64,000 nucleotides of DNA from Ginglymostoma cirratum. Its lineage: Eukaryota. Shown in pieces: positions 1 through 51,984 of this stretch (position 1 is the stretch's first letter; each line of letters begins with the position of its first letter). The stretch is taken from contig JAHRHZ010000036.1 in assembly GCA_024137785.1 (NCBI GenBank), positions 3,111,091 through 3,175,090 on the forward strand, written 5' to 3'. The notes under the pieces are model-generated. The model searched no databases, was not told the DNA's origin, and saw only the letters and a list, made by a program, of their open reading frames with translations. The translations under genes and the position numbers were made by a program.

Positions 1-144
1 ACCCTTCATCAGGTTTCTGATGAAGGGTCTAGGCCCGAAACGTCAAGTTTTCCTGCTCCTATGATGCTGCTTGACCTGCTGTGTTCATCCAGCCCCATGC
101 TTGTTATCTCGGATTCTCCAGCATCTGCAGTACCTTTTTATCTC
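1..144 (+). mobile_element. Penelope-like (PLE) 3'-end fold-back element, copy A (left arm cut by window edge)
   Basis: Palindromic centre acccttcatcag-gttt-ctgatgaagggt, hammerhead core, then shared arm ending ...ttgttatctc + tail ggattctccagcatctgcagtacctttttatctc. Confidence 0.85.
17..44 (+). ncRNA. Minimal type I hammerhead ribozyme core (PLE-associated)
   Basis: CTGATGA-A-GGGT CTAG GCCC-GAAA-CG-TC: conserved core, 4-bp stem II, palindromic ACGT stem III, GUC cleavage triplet. Confidence 0.75.
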
Positions 145-11090: not shown

Positions 11091-13344
11091 CCTCTCCCTA
11101 ACAGTGTTGATGTAGCTGTGCCAAATAGATTACAACAGTTCAAGAAAGTATCTATCTACCAGCTTCTCCAGGGTAATTAAGAATGGCCAATAAATGATGG
11201 CCTAGACAGCAATACTCATCCCCTAAAATCTCTCTCATCTATTTATTGTGACACTGTGATGCTTTGCAATTTGCAGGAAACCAATGTGTCAGTCAGGATC
11301 TTCAGGTTACTGCTCAAATCCTTTGGATTTGTGCACTTTATCTTTTGATCTTGGTGAAGCTTGGAAAGCCAAATGGTGTTCACCAAACTGCATCTCTACA
11401 AACCATGACAGATATGGATATTTAGTGCAGAAAAGGAAACTTTAAGAACCGTGGTGTATGACAGTGGACACCCAGAACAGTCATCAAACACAATGACTTA
11501 ATGCTGGATTATCAAATATGAGGAAGCATCAGTGATATACTTTGCATTGGACTAACAACTATCTAGTTTGGCCAACTGAATGTAGAGTTACGGTTGTAGT
11601 TCTACACCAACATCAGCCATGTGAAAACTGATTTTGGTCTGTAATTGGATCTGGAGCATCCAGTGCTTGGAATGAGTGGTTGGAGATTGAGGCTTCTTTG
11701 TACACCAGAGCCACATGATAATGTAACATTGTTCTGAATCACTGAATTCAATGTTTTATTTTGTATGACCTAATTGAGGAAGTGGGATAGGGAAGGAAGA
11801 GCCCTTCAGACAAACTCGTGGGTTCTTCCTACGTTCACCATTGGTAGTAAGGCCACCAGTTTTAGTCTCTTATTTCCTACTTTTCACTGGGACCACACCG
11901 ATGCCATAGCTGACAAAAAGACCAGTAGATTTTGTATAATATTAAAAATTAACTTTAAATTTAGCACTGGAATTTGATCGAGACTGCATCCTTAATCTTT
12001 TTCCTGATTTGACCACTCATATTTACACGGTTTTTCTGTTGGATTGTGGTGGTGTTTGAGCCTTGCCCTAATTCATGGATAAGCTGGTTAAGGCATCTGT
12101 TACCACCATGAATTTGCGTCTGGTCTCAGTTGATGTTCTTTTGGGTTATTTCCCAATTAAAAATTGCAACTTGTATGAAGCTTGTTTTCTCTGTATTCGA
12201 AGGACAGCTTTGTTTTTTTTGTTCATCCCTATGCTGTAAGCTGCGGAAGATTAGCTAGCTTGGGGCAGTCTAGGGATGAGAAACCTTTGAGTTGTAAAAG
12301 TGAGGTGATGCAATTGCCCTGGCTGACATTGAGAACACCATCGGGTTCATTTGTTTTAAGAACTTGCAAGGTGATCGGGCCCTTTTTTTAAAAATAGCGC
12401 AACCTATATTGCTTCTGCAGAAAATTTTGAAAAGTTGACCTTTTGTAATATGCAAAGTCATCAGCACGTCTGTCTACTGATTATATTTTTGGCTGCTTTC
12501 CATTCCTGCTTTTCAACCTGTACAAAAATGCTGCATAGCTCAAAGGCTCATAACCTTGAATAAAACACACTTTTTATATTTTGGGAGCAATGTGTTCAAT
12601 TGGTATTAAAAATGTTTTTGCCAAATAAGTTTGAATGGAGGTATATTTAGTGTTTCAGAATTTTCAAAATATATCTTACAGTACGTTTTAGTTTTGAATT
12701 CTTGCATGAAACATGCAATAAAATATTGCTACCACATCGATTCCAGAGTACGGGAGCTATGTTAAGCTTGCCTTTGAAAAGAACAGCTCCCTCAATGCTA
12801 ATCTTCAGAAGTGTTTGGCTGGGACTGGTCCTGTCTCTCTCTAGATGGCATTCCTTGCAATTTGTAAGCAATGGATTGTTTATGGTCCCAAGGTGTTTGT
12901 ATAAAATATCTGTGAATAACAACCAGTAATAAAGCTGACTAGTGTTTATTGTTTTGTAAAATTGAAACTTACTTTCAAAAGGAAGAAAACTTTTAGCGTG
13001 AGCACTATGGAAAATATTTTAAATTCTAAGGCTGTATTTCGTTAAAGAATGAGTCTTGTGCTGAGACTTGTATGAGGTTGGAAATGATAACACTATCTTT
13101 GGTCTTGGTGCTTTCCCATAGAGAAAAGGAGCTGTGCTTATACTCAATTATCTTTAATGTTACACAACAGATGAGAACCAGACATTCTTTTAGATGCAGT
13201 GGGATGGAGGTCTTGGAATACTGTGACCAAGTTACAAAGAGTTAAGAGATAAAAGGTACTGCAGATGCTGGAGAATCCGAGATAACAAGCATGGGGCTGG
13301 ATGAGCACAGCAGGTCAAGCAGCATCACAGGAGCAGGAAAACTT

Positions 13345-13372
13345 GACGTTTCGGGCCTAAACCCTTCATCAG
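13345..13372 (-). ncRNA. Minimal hammerhead ribozyme core, minus strand
   Basis: Reverse complement reads CTGATGAAGGGTTTAGGCCCGAAACGTC. Confidence 0.72.
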
Positions 13373-13402
13373 AAAATGGATTTTCTGATGAAGGGTTTAG
13401 GC

Positions 13403-13802
13403 NNNNNNNNNNNNNNNNNNNNNNNNNNNNNNNNNNNNNNNNNNNNNNNNNNNNNNNNNNNNNNNNNNNNNNNNNNNNNNNNNNNNNNNNNNNNNNNNNN
13501 NNNNNNNNNNNNNNNNNNNNNNNNNNNNNNNNNNNNNNNNNNNNNNNNNNNNNNNNNNNNNNNNNNNNNNNNNNNNNNNNNNNNNNNNNNNNNNNNNNNN
13601 NNNNNNNNNNNNNNNNNNNNNNNNNNNNNNNNNNNNNNNNNNNNNNNNNNNNNNNNNNNNNNNNNNNNNNNNNNNNNNNNNNNNNNNNNNNNNNNNNNNN
13701 NNNNNNNNNNNNNNNNNNNNNNNNNNNNNNNNNNNNNNNNNNNNNNNNNNNNNNNNNNNNNNNNNNNNNNNNNNNNNNNNNNNNNNNNNNNNNNNNNNNN
13801 NN
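13403..13802. other. Assembly gap (400 N)
   Basis: Run of N in the sequence. Confidence 0.99.
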
Positions 13803-13830
13803 CTAAACCCTTCATCAGAAAATGGATTTT

Positions 13831-13858
13831 CTGATGAAGGGTTTAGGCCCGAAACGTC
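13831..13858 (+). ncRNA. Minimal hammerhead ribozyme core, plus strand
   Basis: CTGATGAAGGGTTTAGGCCCGAAACGTC. Confidence 0.72.
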
Positions 13859-16800
13859 AAGTTTTCCTGCTCCTGTGATGCTGCTTGACCTGCTGTGCTC
13901 ATCCAGCCCCATGCTTGTTATCTTACAAAGAGTTAATTTGGTTTTTGTTTTAAAATAATGCATTTTTGTCTTGGCGTTCCAATTCTAAATGCTTGAGTAC
14001 ACATCTGCAATGGAAATTACCCTTGCAAATTTAGCAGGCTAGAAGTGTTAGGGTGTAATTACAGAGACACATTGGTAGGTGTAATTACAATGTCACAAAT
14101 TTACACAGGCAGCTTCTATTGTAAATGGAGATGTAGAATTTATTATATAGCGAAGTTGCCAGGAAGTATCTACAGCTGTAAGATAGACATAAGATTTCAA
14201 GTTCCTGTCTTTCCAGAATGAGTGAGTGTGGCTTTTTGGGACCCCCTAAAACAAGTTTTCCGGAAATGCTGTTAATGTTTTCATTCTTGTGGGTTTTTGG
14301 CATGGCATATATTTTTAGAGGTGGGGTGGAAGAGGATGATATTTTTTCGTAACATTTCTCTAATATTTCAGCGTCCTTGCTCTGATACATCTGTACCGTA
14401 GGTGTGTCCTTGACCAAAGACTCTACATGTTTCTGATTGTGCCAGGGGAAATGTTGGTTCCTGGCCTTTGACAGACTTGAGGATATGAAGCAAAATGAAT
14501 TTTTCCTTTGTCAGGATGTTCGTGTCGTTTGTGGTGTCAGGACAGTTAATGGGGCACAATGATGGTGTAGTGATAATGAGACTATTCTGTTAATCCAAAG
14601 GCCAAGCAAATGCTGTGGGGACATTGCAGAGGAATCGAGTAAGGGAAAGGGCAAGAAAATGAATGTGAGGAGTGTTGGATTAGTCATGACTCTATTGAAT
14701 AGCAAAACAGATTTGAGAGGCTGAACAGCCTGTTCCTATTACTTATGGTTCTTATAATTCAGATTCTGCCATGAACTTCAGTTAATAAATCTGGAATCGA
14801 AAGCTGTTCACTGTTGGTGACCATGACACAGTTGATTATAGGAGTCTTCGTTTCCACCCCTTGCACTATTAAATGTTGCTTCACTACTGTAATTTTTGAC
14901 TGTACCTCAGTTTTCAATGTGCCTTCAGAAAATTAAGGATGCTGTTTCTGTCGTTTGCAGCACCTGATGCTAATAAAAGCCTCATTGAGGTTTGTGTTCA
15001 AAATCAAATGGATTTGATTATAACAACCATAGTGTCCCTAACCCAGAACCAGAAGGCCTGGGTTCAAGTCCCACCTTCTCCAGAGGTGTTTAACATCTCA
15101 ACGGGTGATTTTTGAAAGAGGTTAAATTTTTAAAAGATTTAATTTTGCATATTGATATGTAAAAGTAACTCGGGTATGGTTTAAAATTTAATGCAATCAG
15201 CATGAATTTATCTCTGCTTCCCACAGGCTGAGAATTTCTGCTTTTGGGCTCAAGCAGCAAAAGCAATCATGCAGTCCCACCCCAAGCCCCCGACTCTGTC
15301 AGGTCTCCTCCCCCCACCTCCCCTTTTAGTTCACAATGAGGGGCTTGTGACAATTTTCCACCCTCACAATAGGGTCACAAGATTTGAGAAGCACTGATTT
15401 ATCTCCAAGTGTAAACCAGTACAGAGGTAAAGGGCATGTGTCACAAATGTTGACTCTGCATGTGCTGAGCAGAGCCAAGCATGTCTTGATTCCCTGTGGT
15501 TGTGCTGTGTGAGAACAGGAGTTGGGGTGGGTTTAGGTACAGTGTGGACAGGGTGAGTTGGGGGCTTTGGGTAAGAGAGTAGGGGATGGAGGAGGGACCT
15601 CAAATACCACTTCACAAACAGAAGCTCGCGTTACATGTAACCTCCATCTGATTTCAGTATCCAAAACTCTTCACAAGGCTGCAGGGAAGCACTGTGCAGA
15701 CATGTTATTTTGAAGAAAAACATTTGTTTTCTTTACCAAATGCAATGTTTACGCAGACAGTTGGAGCTGCATTTCTGTACAGCTGTAGTCTCAGCATGAA
15801 GCAGATCACTACTACAGTTTTAAGACTGTGCTGCTCGAGTCATCTGCGGTGTAGTCAGAGGACGTGTTTTGGTGCAAACTCAATTATTTGTTTGTAGTTT
15901 GTGTCGAGCTGATTTTTGCCCAAAATCGCAAGCTTTCTGCTGGGAGTCAGTGGCTACAAAATTGTTTTATACCACTTCCACTGTGTAATTCTGTTAAAGG
16001 GCTGAAAATTATTTATCTCCACTCCTAAAACTCTATAATTAATATTGTTGCACCTGCTTTATGGTTTATATGAAAAAGTGCAGATTTTTGTTTATAGTTT
16101 TGGTATTTGAAGGAGCAGGACAACTACCAGCCAGCGTCATCCCACAACCTTTCTTTCCCCCTTCACCCACAATTTGAATGATTTTTATTCTGATGAAGCT
16201 TGAGGTTGAATTTACTTCAGTCCTTGGGTCTCTCGGTTCTGACGTATCACCAGAATTGCATCATGTTTGCATCAGTAAGAAACTTAAACTCCTTTTGTTT
16301 TATCCTAAATGTGTTAACTGTGAATACTGTGTTCTATGAGTACCTCCCAAAATCCTGCAACACAATGTACGCGATTTGTTATGCTGTGTTAAGTTTGTTG
16401 CCCATGAGTCATTGCACCGCGATGTTTTTAATTCTTTTGGAACAGAAGGTGAATGTTGTGCTCTTTAAGAAAGGTGTTGGTGTTGTGAAGCAGGATGTTT
16501 CATGTTTTTGCATTCATGTTAACTTAGAGCATTGCCAACTGAAGTATAACACAATGCTCTTGCACTGCTTCAATTTCATAGTTCTTAGCCTGATCAAACT
16601 ATTCATCTTGATTAAATTCAGCACTCGAGTGCTTTGAATGAAGGACCACCCTTGTCCTGTTTTCTTTGTGACTGCTGCATTGCCTGATAGTTTAGGACTA
16701 GCTCCCTTCGTTCTTACACTTTCCAGTAACTTATTGGAGTTACTGATTGGAGTAACTTTTGATTGGAGCATCTTTTGTTGTTGTTCTTGCCCTCAATAGC

Positions 16801-17081: not shown

Positions 17082-17172
17082 TGAAGGGTCTAGGCCCGAA
17101 ACATCGAGCTTTCCTGCTCCTATGATGCTGCTTGGCCTGCTGTGTTCATCCAGCTCCACACCTTGTTATCTC
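17082..17172 (+). mobile_element. PLE 3'-end fragment, copy G (single arm, older subfamily, hammerhead 5' core lost)
   Basis: tgaagggtctaggcccgaaacatcgagctttcctgctcc...ccttgttatctc. Confidence 0.8.
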
Positions 17173-17719: not shown

Positions 17720-17864
17720 GAGATAGCAAAAACTGCCGATGCTGGAGTCAGAGATACCACTTTCTTTTCTGAAGAAGGGTCCCGACCTGAAATGTCAGCT
17801 TTCCTGTTCCTCTGATACTGCCTGGCCTGCTGTGTTCCTCCAGCTCCCCACTTTTTGTTATCTC
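17720..17864. mobile_element. PLE 3'-end inverted element, copy H (tail on left arm, degenerate hammerhead on right arm)
   Basis: gagatagcaaaaactgccgatgctggagtcagagata...ctgaagaagggtcccgacctgaaatgtc...ttgttatctc; degenerate TSD tcaccctgcact / ttaacctgcact. Confidence 0.78.
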
Positions 17865-19744: not shown

Positions 19745-19975
<231 letters not shown>

Positions 19976-28814: not shown

Positions 28815-28941
28815 TGAGGTGTAAAATGTCATTTTTAAAAATAATGAAGCTAAACTAAGCATTGAGGCTTCTTTGCGTGGACAGTTTAAAATCTTTTTTA
28901 AATCTCATGGGTTATTCAAAAAAGAACGAGTGAATTCTTCT

Positions 28942-29142
28942 GAGATAACAAGGTGTAGAGCTGGATGAACACAGCAGGCCAAGCAGCATCAGAGGAGCAG
29001 GAAAGCTGATGTTTCTTCAGAAGGGTCTAGGCCGAAGACATCAGCTTTCCTGCTCCTCTGATGCTGCTTGGCCTACTGTGTTCATCCAGCTCTACACCTT
29101 GTTATCTCAGATTCTTCAGCAGCTGCAGTTCCTACTACCTCT
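28942..29142. mobile_element. PLE 3'-end fold-back element, copy E (older subfamily), 15-bp degenerate TSD
   Basis: Inverted arms gagataacaaggtgtagagctgg... / ...ccagctctacaccttgttatctc + tail; TSD cgagtgaattcttct (28927-28941) vs caagcgaattcttct (29143-29157). Confidence 0.87.
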
Positions 29143-42549: not shown

Positions 42550-42660
42550 GAGATAAAAGGTACTGCAGATGCTGGAGAATCCGAGATAACAAGCATGGGG
42601 CTGGATGAACACAGCAGGTCAAGCAGCATCATAGGGATCCAGCCCCATGCTTGTTATCTC
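42550..42660. mobile_element. PLE 3'-end minimal fold-back element, copy D (111 bp, no hammerhead), 14-bp TSD, nested in a CR1-like 3' end
   Basis: TSD ctagcctatgtagt at 42535-42548 and 42661-42674; tailed left arm, ~25-nt right arm. Confidence 0.9.
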
Positions 42661-43347
42661 CTAGCCTATGTAGTGTTTCTTCAGCAAATGTCATCTGACT
42701 TTTAATCACTCTTATCCAGTGTACTTGAGGTTTGACAAATAGGTACTTGTTGCCAGCAGTAATGTCTAGCTAGGCATGGGGTAGAGGGTTAAAGTTTCTA
42801 AAAGAAGGGGACTGGCATAAGATGCAAGAAATGACTATGACCCAGTCTTTCAGGTGAAGCAAATGCAAAGAACTGACAGCAACAGAACATCAGAAATCTT
42901 GGTGGCCTTTTCAGTTGCAATGACTGTGTCAACAATTGTCTGCAAACATCTTTTGTTCTATTTTGTCAGAGTAATTCGATCCTATATTGTGGGTGGAGTA
43001 CAATTCGATTGTTTTCCAGATTTAACATCCCAATGTCATGTATCTTGTCCTGGATTCACACACCTTTTGTGTTTGTATCTGTTTCTTGAACTGTTTTGCT
43101 GCCTTGCTGAGTGTGAGTAAAAAAGGGGTCAGTTCTGAGGAAAGGAGAGCTTGCTTATTTCGACACCTTGTAATTGTCACTCATTGCAGAGCATTTATAG
43201 CCCCAGTCAGCTACAGAGCAAAGCTCCTTACATTCTACACAACAAATTCTAAACCACCAGGAAAGGAAATTTGCTCATTTCTATCCTGGAATGATTTTGT
43301 CCCCAAGCTATCTGATTTAACTTTTTTTGTCTTACTCATAAGTAATT

Positions 43348-43553
43348 AAAACGCACACACACAAAAACGCGCGCGCACACAAAAACGCGCGCGCACACAA
43401 AAACGCGCGCACACACAAAAACGCGCGCAAAAACGCACACACACACAAAAACACGCACACACACAAAAACACGCACACACACAAAAACACAAAAACACAC
43501 ACACAAACACACACGCACAAAAACGCGCGCACAAAAGCACGCACGCGCACAAA
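43348..43553. repeat. Compound minisatellite, ~16-18 bp units AAAAAC(GC)n(AC)n
   Basis: aaaaacgcgcgcgcacac repeated with variants about 12 times. Confidence 0.95.
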
Positions 43554-45532
43554 GTCTAAATTCCTGTCCCATGCTTCAGATGTGGCACAACTTCTAACCA
43601 TTTGAAAGCAAGTCTCAGGAAAGCTGCTGTAGCTTGACCTGAGTAAAGCTTGAGTAGATGAAGAACTAAAGCTGTTTACGATTAAGTTCATAAAGCATGC
43701 AACTTTTTTCCCACTAATCTGTTAAATCGGCATACTGGCTTCAGAAGCAGTGCGGTAGAATGGGAGCAGTTCAGGATCCTCTGTGGAATTGGTGTGTCTC
43801 TCAGCATGTGTTTCAGCACAGTTGTCAATGCAGGGTTACAGGTGCAAAAAAGCTAAGCACATTAAACAAAGTTTTACATTTAGCATGTCTTCTAAATACT
43901 ATACATATGAACAAAGGGTAGGGCCATGTAAACCCCCCACCCCCCAAAAAAATCTGCTCTGCCATTTAAAAATCATGGTTGCCCGATGATTCGTGGCATC
44001 CACACTTGCCATCTTCCCTGATAACATTACATCCCTTGTTTGCCAAGAATCTATCCAACTCTCTCTGAAATATCCAATGACTCAATTTCTACTGCCTTTT
44101 TGAGCAGAGAGTTTCAAAGACTTATGACCCAAAAATATTTTGCTCTGTGACCCCTTAGTTCTAGATTCTCCAATAAAAGGGAACATCCACTCCACATCCA
44201 CACTGTCAAGACCCCTCAGGATCTTTTTGTTTAAATCAAGTTACCTCCAAATCTTCTAAATTCTTTCTAACATTTTCTCAAAGGTTCCTCAGTACTGACT
44301 TTGGAGACTGATTTGACCTTGTTGCTCTGAGGCCTCTGATTTATTTTATTACAGTGCACCACTACACAAGTGGCTGAGAGTGATTTTAAATTGGGTTTGC
44401 CTGTGCAGATCAGTGGATTTTGATATTGCTGCCAAGATCATGGATATGGATGACAAGGCCTATACTTATTACCAACTCTCACTCAAGTCCTCCATGAAGG
44501 AACACTTTTTTCCCCCCTTATCTTCTCCCCCCCCTCCCCCCCTTTCCCCCATTTCCCCCCTCCTTTCCCCTTCTCCCTCCCCCCCATATCAAATCTCTAC
44601 CATGTTAAATGCCTCTATTTAATCACTGTCAACCTTCCAAACTTGATTACAGACTGTTTGGAAGGAAATATGTTGTCCTTGGGTGGTCTGGTCCCCATTT
44701 GGCTCCAGATACATAGCAATGTGACTGACTGTTAACTGCCTTCTGAAATGTCCTGATGAGCTGCTTAGTTCAAGGGCAATTGGGGAAGGACAACCAATGT
44801 AATCCTTCATAAAAAACGAAAGAACTGCAGATGCTGTACATCAGAAACTAAACAAATTGCTGGAAGAACTCAGCAGCTCTGGTTTCAGGTTGAGTGACCC
44901 TTCCTCCGTACTCTGTGTAATCCTGGCCAGTGATACCCACATCCCGTTTTTAAGAGAAAAATAGTGTAAGTCTTCACTAAGCTAAGAACGCTCATGTTGA
45001 CTATCATGGTAACTATCATAATGAGATATTAAACATCTGGTATGCATATTACAGCTGCAGATTGTTTGTGCTTAGGATGATGTCATGAACAGATTAAACA
45101 CCAGATTCTGCTTACTCCCTGTTATTATTTTAATGTACAGTAATCTCATGTGAAAATGATCTTGAAGTAAAATTTAATGCCACAATGAAAGCCTATTGTG
45201 ATCACATGCAGAGGAATAGAGTTGCATGATTCACAGTCTATTGCATGACGCCCATATCCCCTTGAGGTGGTTTGCTCTTTAGAAAGCCAGGGGGTAAGTC
45301 AACTTATTGAATTAGATTCATTATGCTATACGAGTAGTGATGTAAATGAATAGTTTAGTTCTTAATAGCCCAAATGGAATTGCAACATTTAGCTAATTGC
45401 CATCGACTAAAATTAGAACTAAGAACAATGATCCCAAAATTGGAAAATCAGTGCATGGTTAAGATCTGCAGAGGAAAGTTCATTGTTTGTAATTGAGACA
45501 TATTTTTATTTCCAATTTCAATATTGTTTTAA

Positions 45533-51938: not shown

Positions 51939-51984
51939 GGTGTCTGCGGGTGTCTTTGAGCCTGTTGTTATTGAGAGCCGTTGA
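51939..51984 (+). CDS. EEIG1: EEIG1 last coding exon 11: VSAGVFEPVVIESR-stop
   Basis: tttctttctccacag|G; TGA at 51982-51984; matches FAM102A C-terminus VSSGVYEPVVIESH. Confidence 0.95.

Follow-up and report, generated by a model that had tools for sequence, protein, structure and literature searches.

A probable dead-end insertion of head-to-head hammerhead end repeats from a Neptune-type Penelope-like retrotransposon in an intron of an NT-C2 gene

The insertion in intron 1 and its assembly gap

The window, the whole stretch of 64,000 nt analysed here, comes from what we take to be a cartilaginous fish. It carries on its plus strand a gene of the NT-C2 type (EEIG1/EHBP1 family, PF10358), two exons of which match PF10358; the gene is presumably EEIG1 and not the paralogue. 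Its first exon maps about 49 kb outside the window, on the upstream side, and its second begins at 19801; the stop codon occupies 51982-51984. Five hammerhead cores proposed in the initial annotation are present at their sites and on their strands: 17-44(+), 13345-13372(-), 13831-13858(+), 62944-62971(+) and a CTGAAGA variant at 62255-62282(-). They also show the two features ascribed to them, an additional A behind A9 and a stem III that consists of ACGT without a loop. As exon 2 starts at 19801, cores 17-44 and 13831-13858 do lie in sense orientation in intron 1 (about 69 kb). Placement of the cores within the pre-mRNA holds for these two; 62944-62971 is located about 11 kb past the stop codon, where transcription with the host gene is possible at most. 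Between the stop codon and 63000, AATAAA or ATTAAA hexamers occur at 10 places. A loose core pattern gave 16 matches in the 64-kb window compared with 6.08+/-2.52 in shuffled sequence, and 0 of 100 shuffles reached 16.

Table 1. Coordinates of the insertion in intron 1 and of its siblings in the window (TSD, target-site duplication).
Feature	Position	Strand	Evidence
Sibling insertion: right arm (core 17-44) plus tail, preceded at 1-12 by the last bases of its inverted arm	1..144	+	
Left TSD, 14 bp	13232..13245		Exact direct repeat of 13923-13936
34-nt "tail", confined to the left arm	13246..13279	-	Sequence; optional 30-40 bp tail of Penelope-like elements in the parts of PMC8557442 and PMC3846280 covered
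Left arm: pLTR/leader copy antisense to the host gene	13280..13377	-	98/98 complementary to 13826-13923
Minimal type I hammerhead core	13345..13372	-	Core pattern match
Palindrome centre, 2 nt; recurs at 13824-13825 past the gap	13378..13379		Sequence
400-N assembly gap	13403..13802		Flanks overlap by 46 nt (13357-13402 = 13803-13848)
Right arm: pLTR/leader copy sense to the host gene, tail-less	13826..13923	+	Sequence
Minimal type I core: CUGAUGA, extra A, 4-bp stem II, GAAA, ACGU palindrome, GUC cut triplet	13831..13858	+	
Right TSD	13923..13936		Exact repeat of 13232-13245
Longer sibling insertion within a 15-bp TSD, with two joined arms: a minus arm that has core 62255-62282, 3' UTR and endonuclease end, and a plus arm that has core 62944-62971 and the tail	62189..63070		
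C-terminal end of the element's RT/GIY-YIG ORF	62460..62810	-	97/102 identical to the P0001 C-terminus; sister ORFs match RVT_1 and GIY-YIG

Because its flanks overlap, the gap in the central insertion probably hides no sequence. Closed on this overlap, the locus would collapse to a single 232-bp insertion (13246-13923), which comprises a 34-nt unpaired extension and a palindrome of 98/98 pairs with a 2-nt centre, inside the 14-bp TSD. The hairpin of 514 nt described initially is thus correct as a palindrome and wrong in its span, which was inflated by the 400 Ns with duplicated flanks. No gap-bridging record was found when contigs of four sequencing runs were compared with 12300-14900; other copies of the family swamped the matches. 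In the 13831-13858 copy stem I has 3 bp, the family's fourth pair being replaced by the palindrome centre. The arm at 13826-13923 differs from a sister copy at just 2 of 93 positions, which argues for a young insertion. Both arms share two substitutions relative to the sister copy; ADAR-type editing was considered as their origin, with n=2 only.

The same kind of break is seen on another scaffold, where an identical 400-N break with overlapping ends centres four of five close opposite-strand pairs (L031-L034; the fifth, L035, is closed). Among ten centres compared, the four closed ones have 6, 10, 15 and 56 arm mismatches per 95 (the last out of register), whereas five of the six gap-flanked ones have none in their 9-15 visible bases. 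Closed centres thus carry mismatches and gap-flanked ones mostly none, which argues that young perfect palindromes break this assembly. Many 400-N gaps with duplicated flanks stand at fold-back centres on scaffolds C1-C4; their true length is probably zero or negative.

Several older relics accompany these insertions. Two fold-back stubs of the same family group, with cores broken or absent, lie inside the gene (28939-29141 and 42550-42660), and intron 1 contains unpaired sense arms at 17766-17864 and 17082-17172, the former with its core boxes and a pairable stem II kept and its stem III palindrome lost. At 54391-54588, 2.4 kb after the stop codon, a sister subfamily has left an older fold-back that no longer has its core and that bears an exact end repeat of 10 bp; it is possibly a long hairpin in the mature 3' UTR. 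A degenerate CA/CG-rich intronic minisatellite with a period of about 18 nt occupies 43330-43569.

Hammerhead fold and parent element

The core boxes, the extra base between positions 9 and 10.1, the G10.1-C11.1 pair and the palindromic stem III bear out the assignment to Penelope-type minimal type I hammerheads. The minimal hammerheads of Penelope-like element (PLE) pLTRs, as described in the portion of PMC4209133 covered, share with those of the shark the type I core, the missing loop 3, the palindromic 15.2-16.2, the G10.1-C11.1 pair and a conserved extra base between 9 and 10.1. The extra nucleotide after A9 is therefore present as annotated, but it is the norm among PLE minimal hammerheads in that source rather than a tolerated oddity. 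Stem II has 4 bp (5 with C-G) and stem I 3-4 bp in the shark, against 7-8 and 4-5 bp in S. mansoni (PMC4209133, in part). Opposite-strand hammerhead pairs 100-700 bp apart in PLEs are reported in the same portion, while cartilaginous fish are unnamed among the hosts of PLE minimal hammerheads in the main text covered. An Rfam search, by which the motif was to be confirmed, matched no hammerhead model, either in the window at gathering score or in the two arms at E<=10. Its best-E hits were miRNA hairpin models far under their cut-offs, and were rejected as a product of the palindrome.

Covariation in stem II, another check proposed at the outset, is found across families only. In 65 distinct cores collected without a pairing requirement, pairs 2-4 score 170 compared with 138.2+/-3.4, a value attained by 0 of 2000 shuffles; as the rows are related and one family is dominant, this is not a probability. 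Pair 2 is G-C in 40 cores, U-A in 5 and A-U in 4. Within this shark family the only stem II change is a one-sided U-G/U-A, and the within-family list, which required pairing, carries no covariation evidence. A pattern that fixes only the first two and the last base of stem II returned 7,081 matches versus 46, including other families with different complementary stems. From these sequence comparisons the fold was likely selected in the parent elements, which says nothing on the 13831-13858 copy. Other hammerhead families of the genome (49748-49771 on the minus strand; L237-L246) have a stem II of 5-6 bp with different sequence, and some recur as opposite-strand pairs 300-430 nt apart.

The family is abundant. 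The exact 28-nt core occurs 64,762 times in the 4.36-Gb genome (reversed control, 0), the 29-mer downstream of the cut site 164,261 times, and the core start with its upstream UTR 47,820 times. In long copies (n=16, picked for long open frames) an RT and GIY-YIG ORF ends about 200-400 nt before a hammerhead arm. The tail continues, in 1,173 exact matches, into further shared sequence, where an ORF starts about 170 nt after C3, and L215, which runs from arm into body, overlaps the RT-bearing copies L083 and L093. The arm thus both precedes the ORF start and follows the ORF end, so it serves as 3' repeat and as 5' leader, that is, as a pLTR. Three ORFs were scanned: GIY-YIG scored above cut-off in two, and RVT_1 matched all three with E of 1.7e-6 to 4e-3, yet below the Pfam cut-off (17-28 bits compared with 29.6). 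The 117-aa ORF fragment of the window alone gave no Pfam match. A 701-aa ORF elsewhere in the genome, P0001, shows DKG, YIDD, CCHH and a CxxxxCxxC linker. The RT with C-terminal GIY-YIG in a repeat-linked ORF, the pLTR, and the inverted 5'-truncated copy with tail and TSD are those of EN+ Penelope-like elements. The DKG, the CCHH and the CX2-5CxxC linker before the endonuclease are the Neptune signature given in part of PMC8557442, and the whole combination resembles EN+ Neptune-clade PLEs in the portions of PMC8557442 and PMC3846280 covered. Judged by sequence, the arm is the pLTR of a Neptune-type Penelope-like element with RT and GIY-YIG, the clade being assigned from motifs rather than from a tree.

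The 5' ends of family copies provide insight into how they were made. Ends accurate to a few bases were taken from 90 plus-strand copies minus 20 that were gap-adjacent, and were placed relative to C3, with the cut site at +28. More than half of the 70 fall at -11..+7 (38); the others lie at +8..+25 (5), +26..+30 (4), +31..+48 (6) or upstream of -49 (17), and none at -12..-49. Among 30 copies that run into the body, 24 are not gap-adjacent, and these end at -11..+7 (8), in tandem (4) or elsewhere in the arm (12), with 0 at the cut site. Because 38/70 ends are at the 5' edge of the hammerhead and 4/70 near the cut site, the data suggest that the templates were mostly uncut RNA and that the pile-up represents short cDNAs from it. 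Hammerhead cleavage was accordingly rejected as the source of the 5' ends (4/70 and 0/24 at the cut site), as was a splice acceptor as the source of the pile-up, the nearest upstream AG lying within the empty interval -12..-49. As the simplest reading we infer RT run-off at the 5' end of the RNA; its rival is RT stalling at the C-rich tract. The motif CCATTTC at -6..0 from C3 is initiator-like. An internal promoter within the pLTR is described for Drosophila Penelope (PMC2377424, in part). We give even weight to the fuller proposal that the element RNA starts a few bases before the hammerhead, that the hammerhead stays uncut, and that RT from the first pLTR runs off the 5' end to yield strong-stop-like solo-pLTR cDNAs, joined head-to-head at one target. 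Neither a description of this shark family nor a report of the 5' pile-up was found in the literature searched, a scope outside which most subscription papers, Repbase and bioRxiv supplements fell.

Symmetry, folding and the host transcript

The symmetry of the insertion is shared across the genome. Of the copies sampled (90 of 100 listed plus-strand matches from a single scaffold, taken from the top of the list), 44 have an inverted arm at most 700 nt upstream, and a tight-centre pattern gave 7,762 strand-matches with many different centre sequences, most junctions being counted twice or more. An adjacent inverted truncated copy, a palindromic junction, a 30-40 bp tail at one end, a TSD and assembly trouble are all described for Penelope-like insertions (PMC8557442 and PMC3846280, portions covered), and the shark insertions share these traits together with the 5' truncation. 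Such symmetry is known from published work as a by-product of Penelope integration, and it recurs here in thousands of insertions whose centres differ; nothing therefore ties it to the host gene. We consider it highly probable that the locus is a TSD-flanked, head-to-head pair of hammerhead end repeats from a high-copy Neptune-type PLE, likely set down in one integration event, and that it forms a predicted inert 98-bp intronic hairpin.

Could the palindromic unit instead be a MITE- or retrozyme-like non-autonomous element whose hairpin is copied in one piece? Such copying would fit the thousands of similar short palindromes, the recurrence of some centre sequences among the matches listed and the substitutions common to both arms of 13246-13923. 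The last would be no less expected if both arms came from a single template at insertion, or if the assembler reused reads. Centres vary widely in length and sequence, either arm may bear the tail, there is a gradation of arm length up to long ORF-bearing insertions, and no head-to-tail array is present in the window. Copying as a whole hairpin is, on this evidence, improbable.

The initial annotation had proposed that the fold-back sequesters the ribozyme as an auto-inhibited switch, which, once opened, would dimerise with another core and cut the host pre-mRNA. The first part agrees with our models: equilibrium folding at five lengths of the transcript predicts pairing of the core with the earlier antisense arm, at a mean P of 0.995-0.999. 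The switch itself fares poorly. The hairpin has a predicted energy of -206.2 kcal/mol, compared with -142.8 kcal/mol with stems I and II forced, so about 63 kcal/mol would be needed to free the core; capture during transcription would oppose opening as well, and no trigger element was seen. Dimeric cutting in cis is disfavoured too. The putative partner 17-44 belongs, as right arm, to a fold-back of its own 13 kb away (at least 12 bp of it are visible, the sequence upstream reading N), the 62944 core is predicted to pair within its own insert, and part of an antisense arm accompanies a further sense core, which lies 7 kb before the window. The sole sense core in the readable intron without an adjacent arm, at 17769, is diverged and has lost its palindrome. 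With a 3-bp stem I, a dimer would rest on an ACGU helix of a predicted -2.3 kcal/mol. Intact sense cores in intron 1, stem II covariation across the hammerhead families of the genome, which points to selection of the fold in parent elements, and the ability of PLE hammerheads to cut as dimers or with protein help (PMC4209133 and PMC11167929, in part) speak for the switch. However, in the portion of PMC4209133 covered, monomers of PLE minimal hammerheads did not cut and dimers cut weakly. Of the Xenopus retrozyme dimers, 8/9 stayed uncut. Tens of thousands of identical cores in the genome and the youth of the insertion count further against it. In PMC11167929, as far as covered, an anole PLE hammerhead cuts only with the element's protein; by analogy, protein-assisted refolding of the hairpin core is possible. 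Taken together, these models make an ordinary dead-end insertion likely and a host-gene switch highly improbable. The gap with duplicated ends at the centre and the identity of the arms might suggest a single real arm that the assembly has doubled. This is scarcely credible, since both contigs read the same asymmetric centre, the two arms share a single TSD, one ends with a tail and the other without, gap-free fold-backs exist in the same build (L035, L193, L195, L204), and the right junction is spanned by a contig from another sequencing run (13899-14075).

Under the preferred reading of a head-to-head pair from one integration, the element endonuclease would nick both target strands, and RT would start at one of two internal sites on hammerhead-uncut RNA, giving a tailed or a tail-less end. 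RT would stop at the 5' edge of the hammerhead, most likely because that is where the RNA starts. Short cDNAs of this kind would then be linked through their 5' ends, either two of them or a single one with its fold-back copy, and a few variable bases would come between. During transcription of the host gene, the antisense arm would appear before the core and pair with it on emergence; the ribozyme would thus fail to fold, and splicing of the intron would remove the insertion as neutral double-stranded RNA. The working life of the hammerhead, if any, would lie in the RNA of the parent element.

Relation to known systems and significance

For PLEs, the literature already describes minimal hammerheads that carry an extra base after A9, hammerhead pairs on opposite strands, and insertions that are inverted and tailed. 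Comparison with the EN+ PLE examples in the portions of PMC8557442 and PMC3846280 covered indicates three differences. The 13246-13923 insert is reduced to two end repeats of about 100-130 bp; the shark family has a very high copy number (>160,000 arms); and the TSD measures 14-15 bp in the shark inserts as against 8-10 bp in the rotifer examples. Like the anole Poseidon element PAc (PMC11167929, in part), the family has its hammerhead at the pLTR and would start RT at two sites, one on each side of the tail, with unprocessed RNA as the main template; for PAc, no RNA ends were found at the cut site. PAc belongs to a different clade, and its ORF starts inside the hammerhead, while the likely ORF start of the shark element is about 170 nt downstream of C3.

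Non-LTR retrozymes (bioRxiv 10.64898/2026.07.22.740005, in part) are likewise non-coding, PLE-derived and equipped with a type I hammerhead. They are head-to-tail tandems with two same-strand ribozymes, whereas the shark insert is head-to-head with one ribozyme per strand, and no head-to-tail array of units with same-strand hammerheads was found in the window. Elsewhere, in internally deleted copies (L219, L224, L227 and L230, with L208 and L223), the ORF breaks off 100-250 nt from its start and the 3' UTR follows directly, with a second hammerhead on the same strand; these short two-ribozyme units resemble retrozyme precursors. Short same-strand tandem arms with a period of 94-400 nt (L013/L014, L034, L220) would be better candidates for dimeric cleavage than the palindrome.

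As one of thousands of like insertions, the single locus matters little. Were the switch true, a vertebrate gene would be under the control of a retroelement ribozyme, which would be striking; nothing in this analysis points there. The family is a recurrent cause of gaps in this assembly, and it is a probable major source of long double-stranded RNA in introns and 3' UTRs. It also constitutes a large natural dataset on the poorly understood integration of Penelope elements, covering RNA start, RT start, inversions and hammerhead cutting. If the run-off reading is true, the in vitro result of internal initiation would be extended to a vertebrate genome, and the tiny palindromes would be explained.
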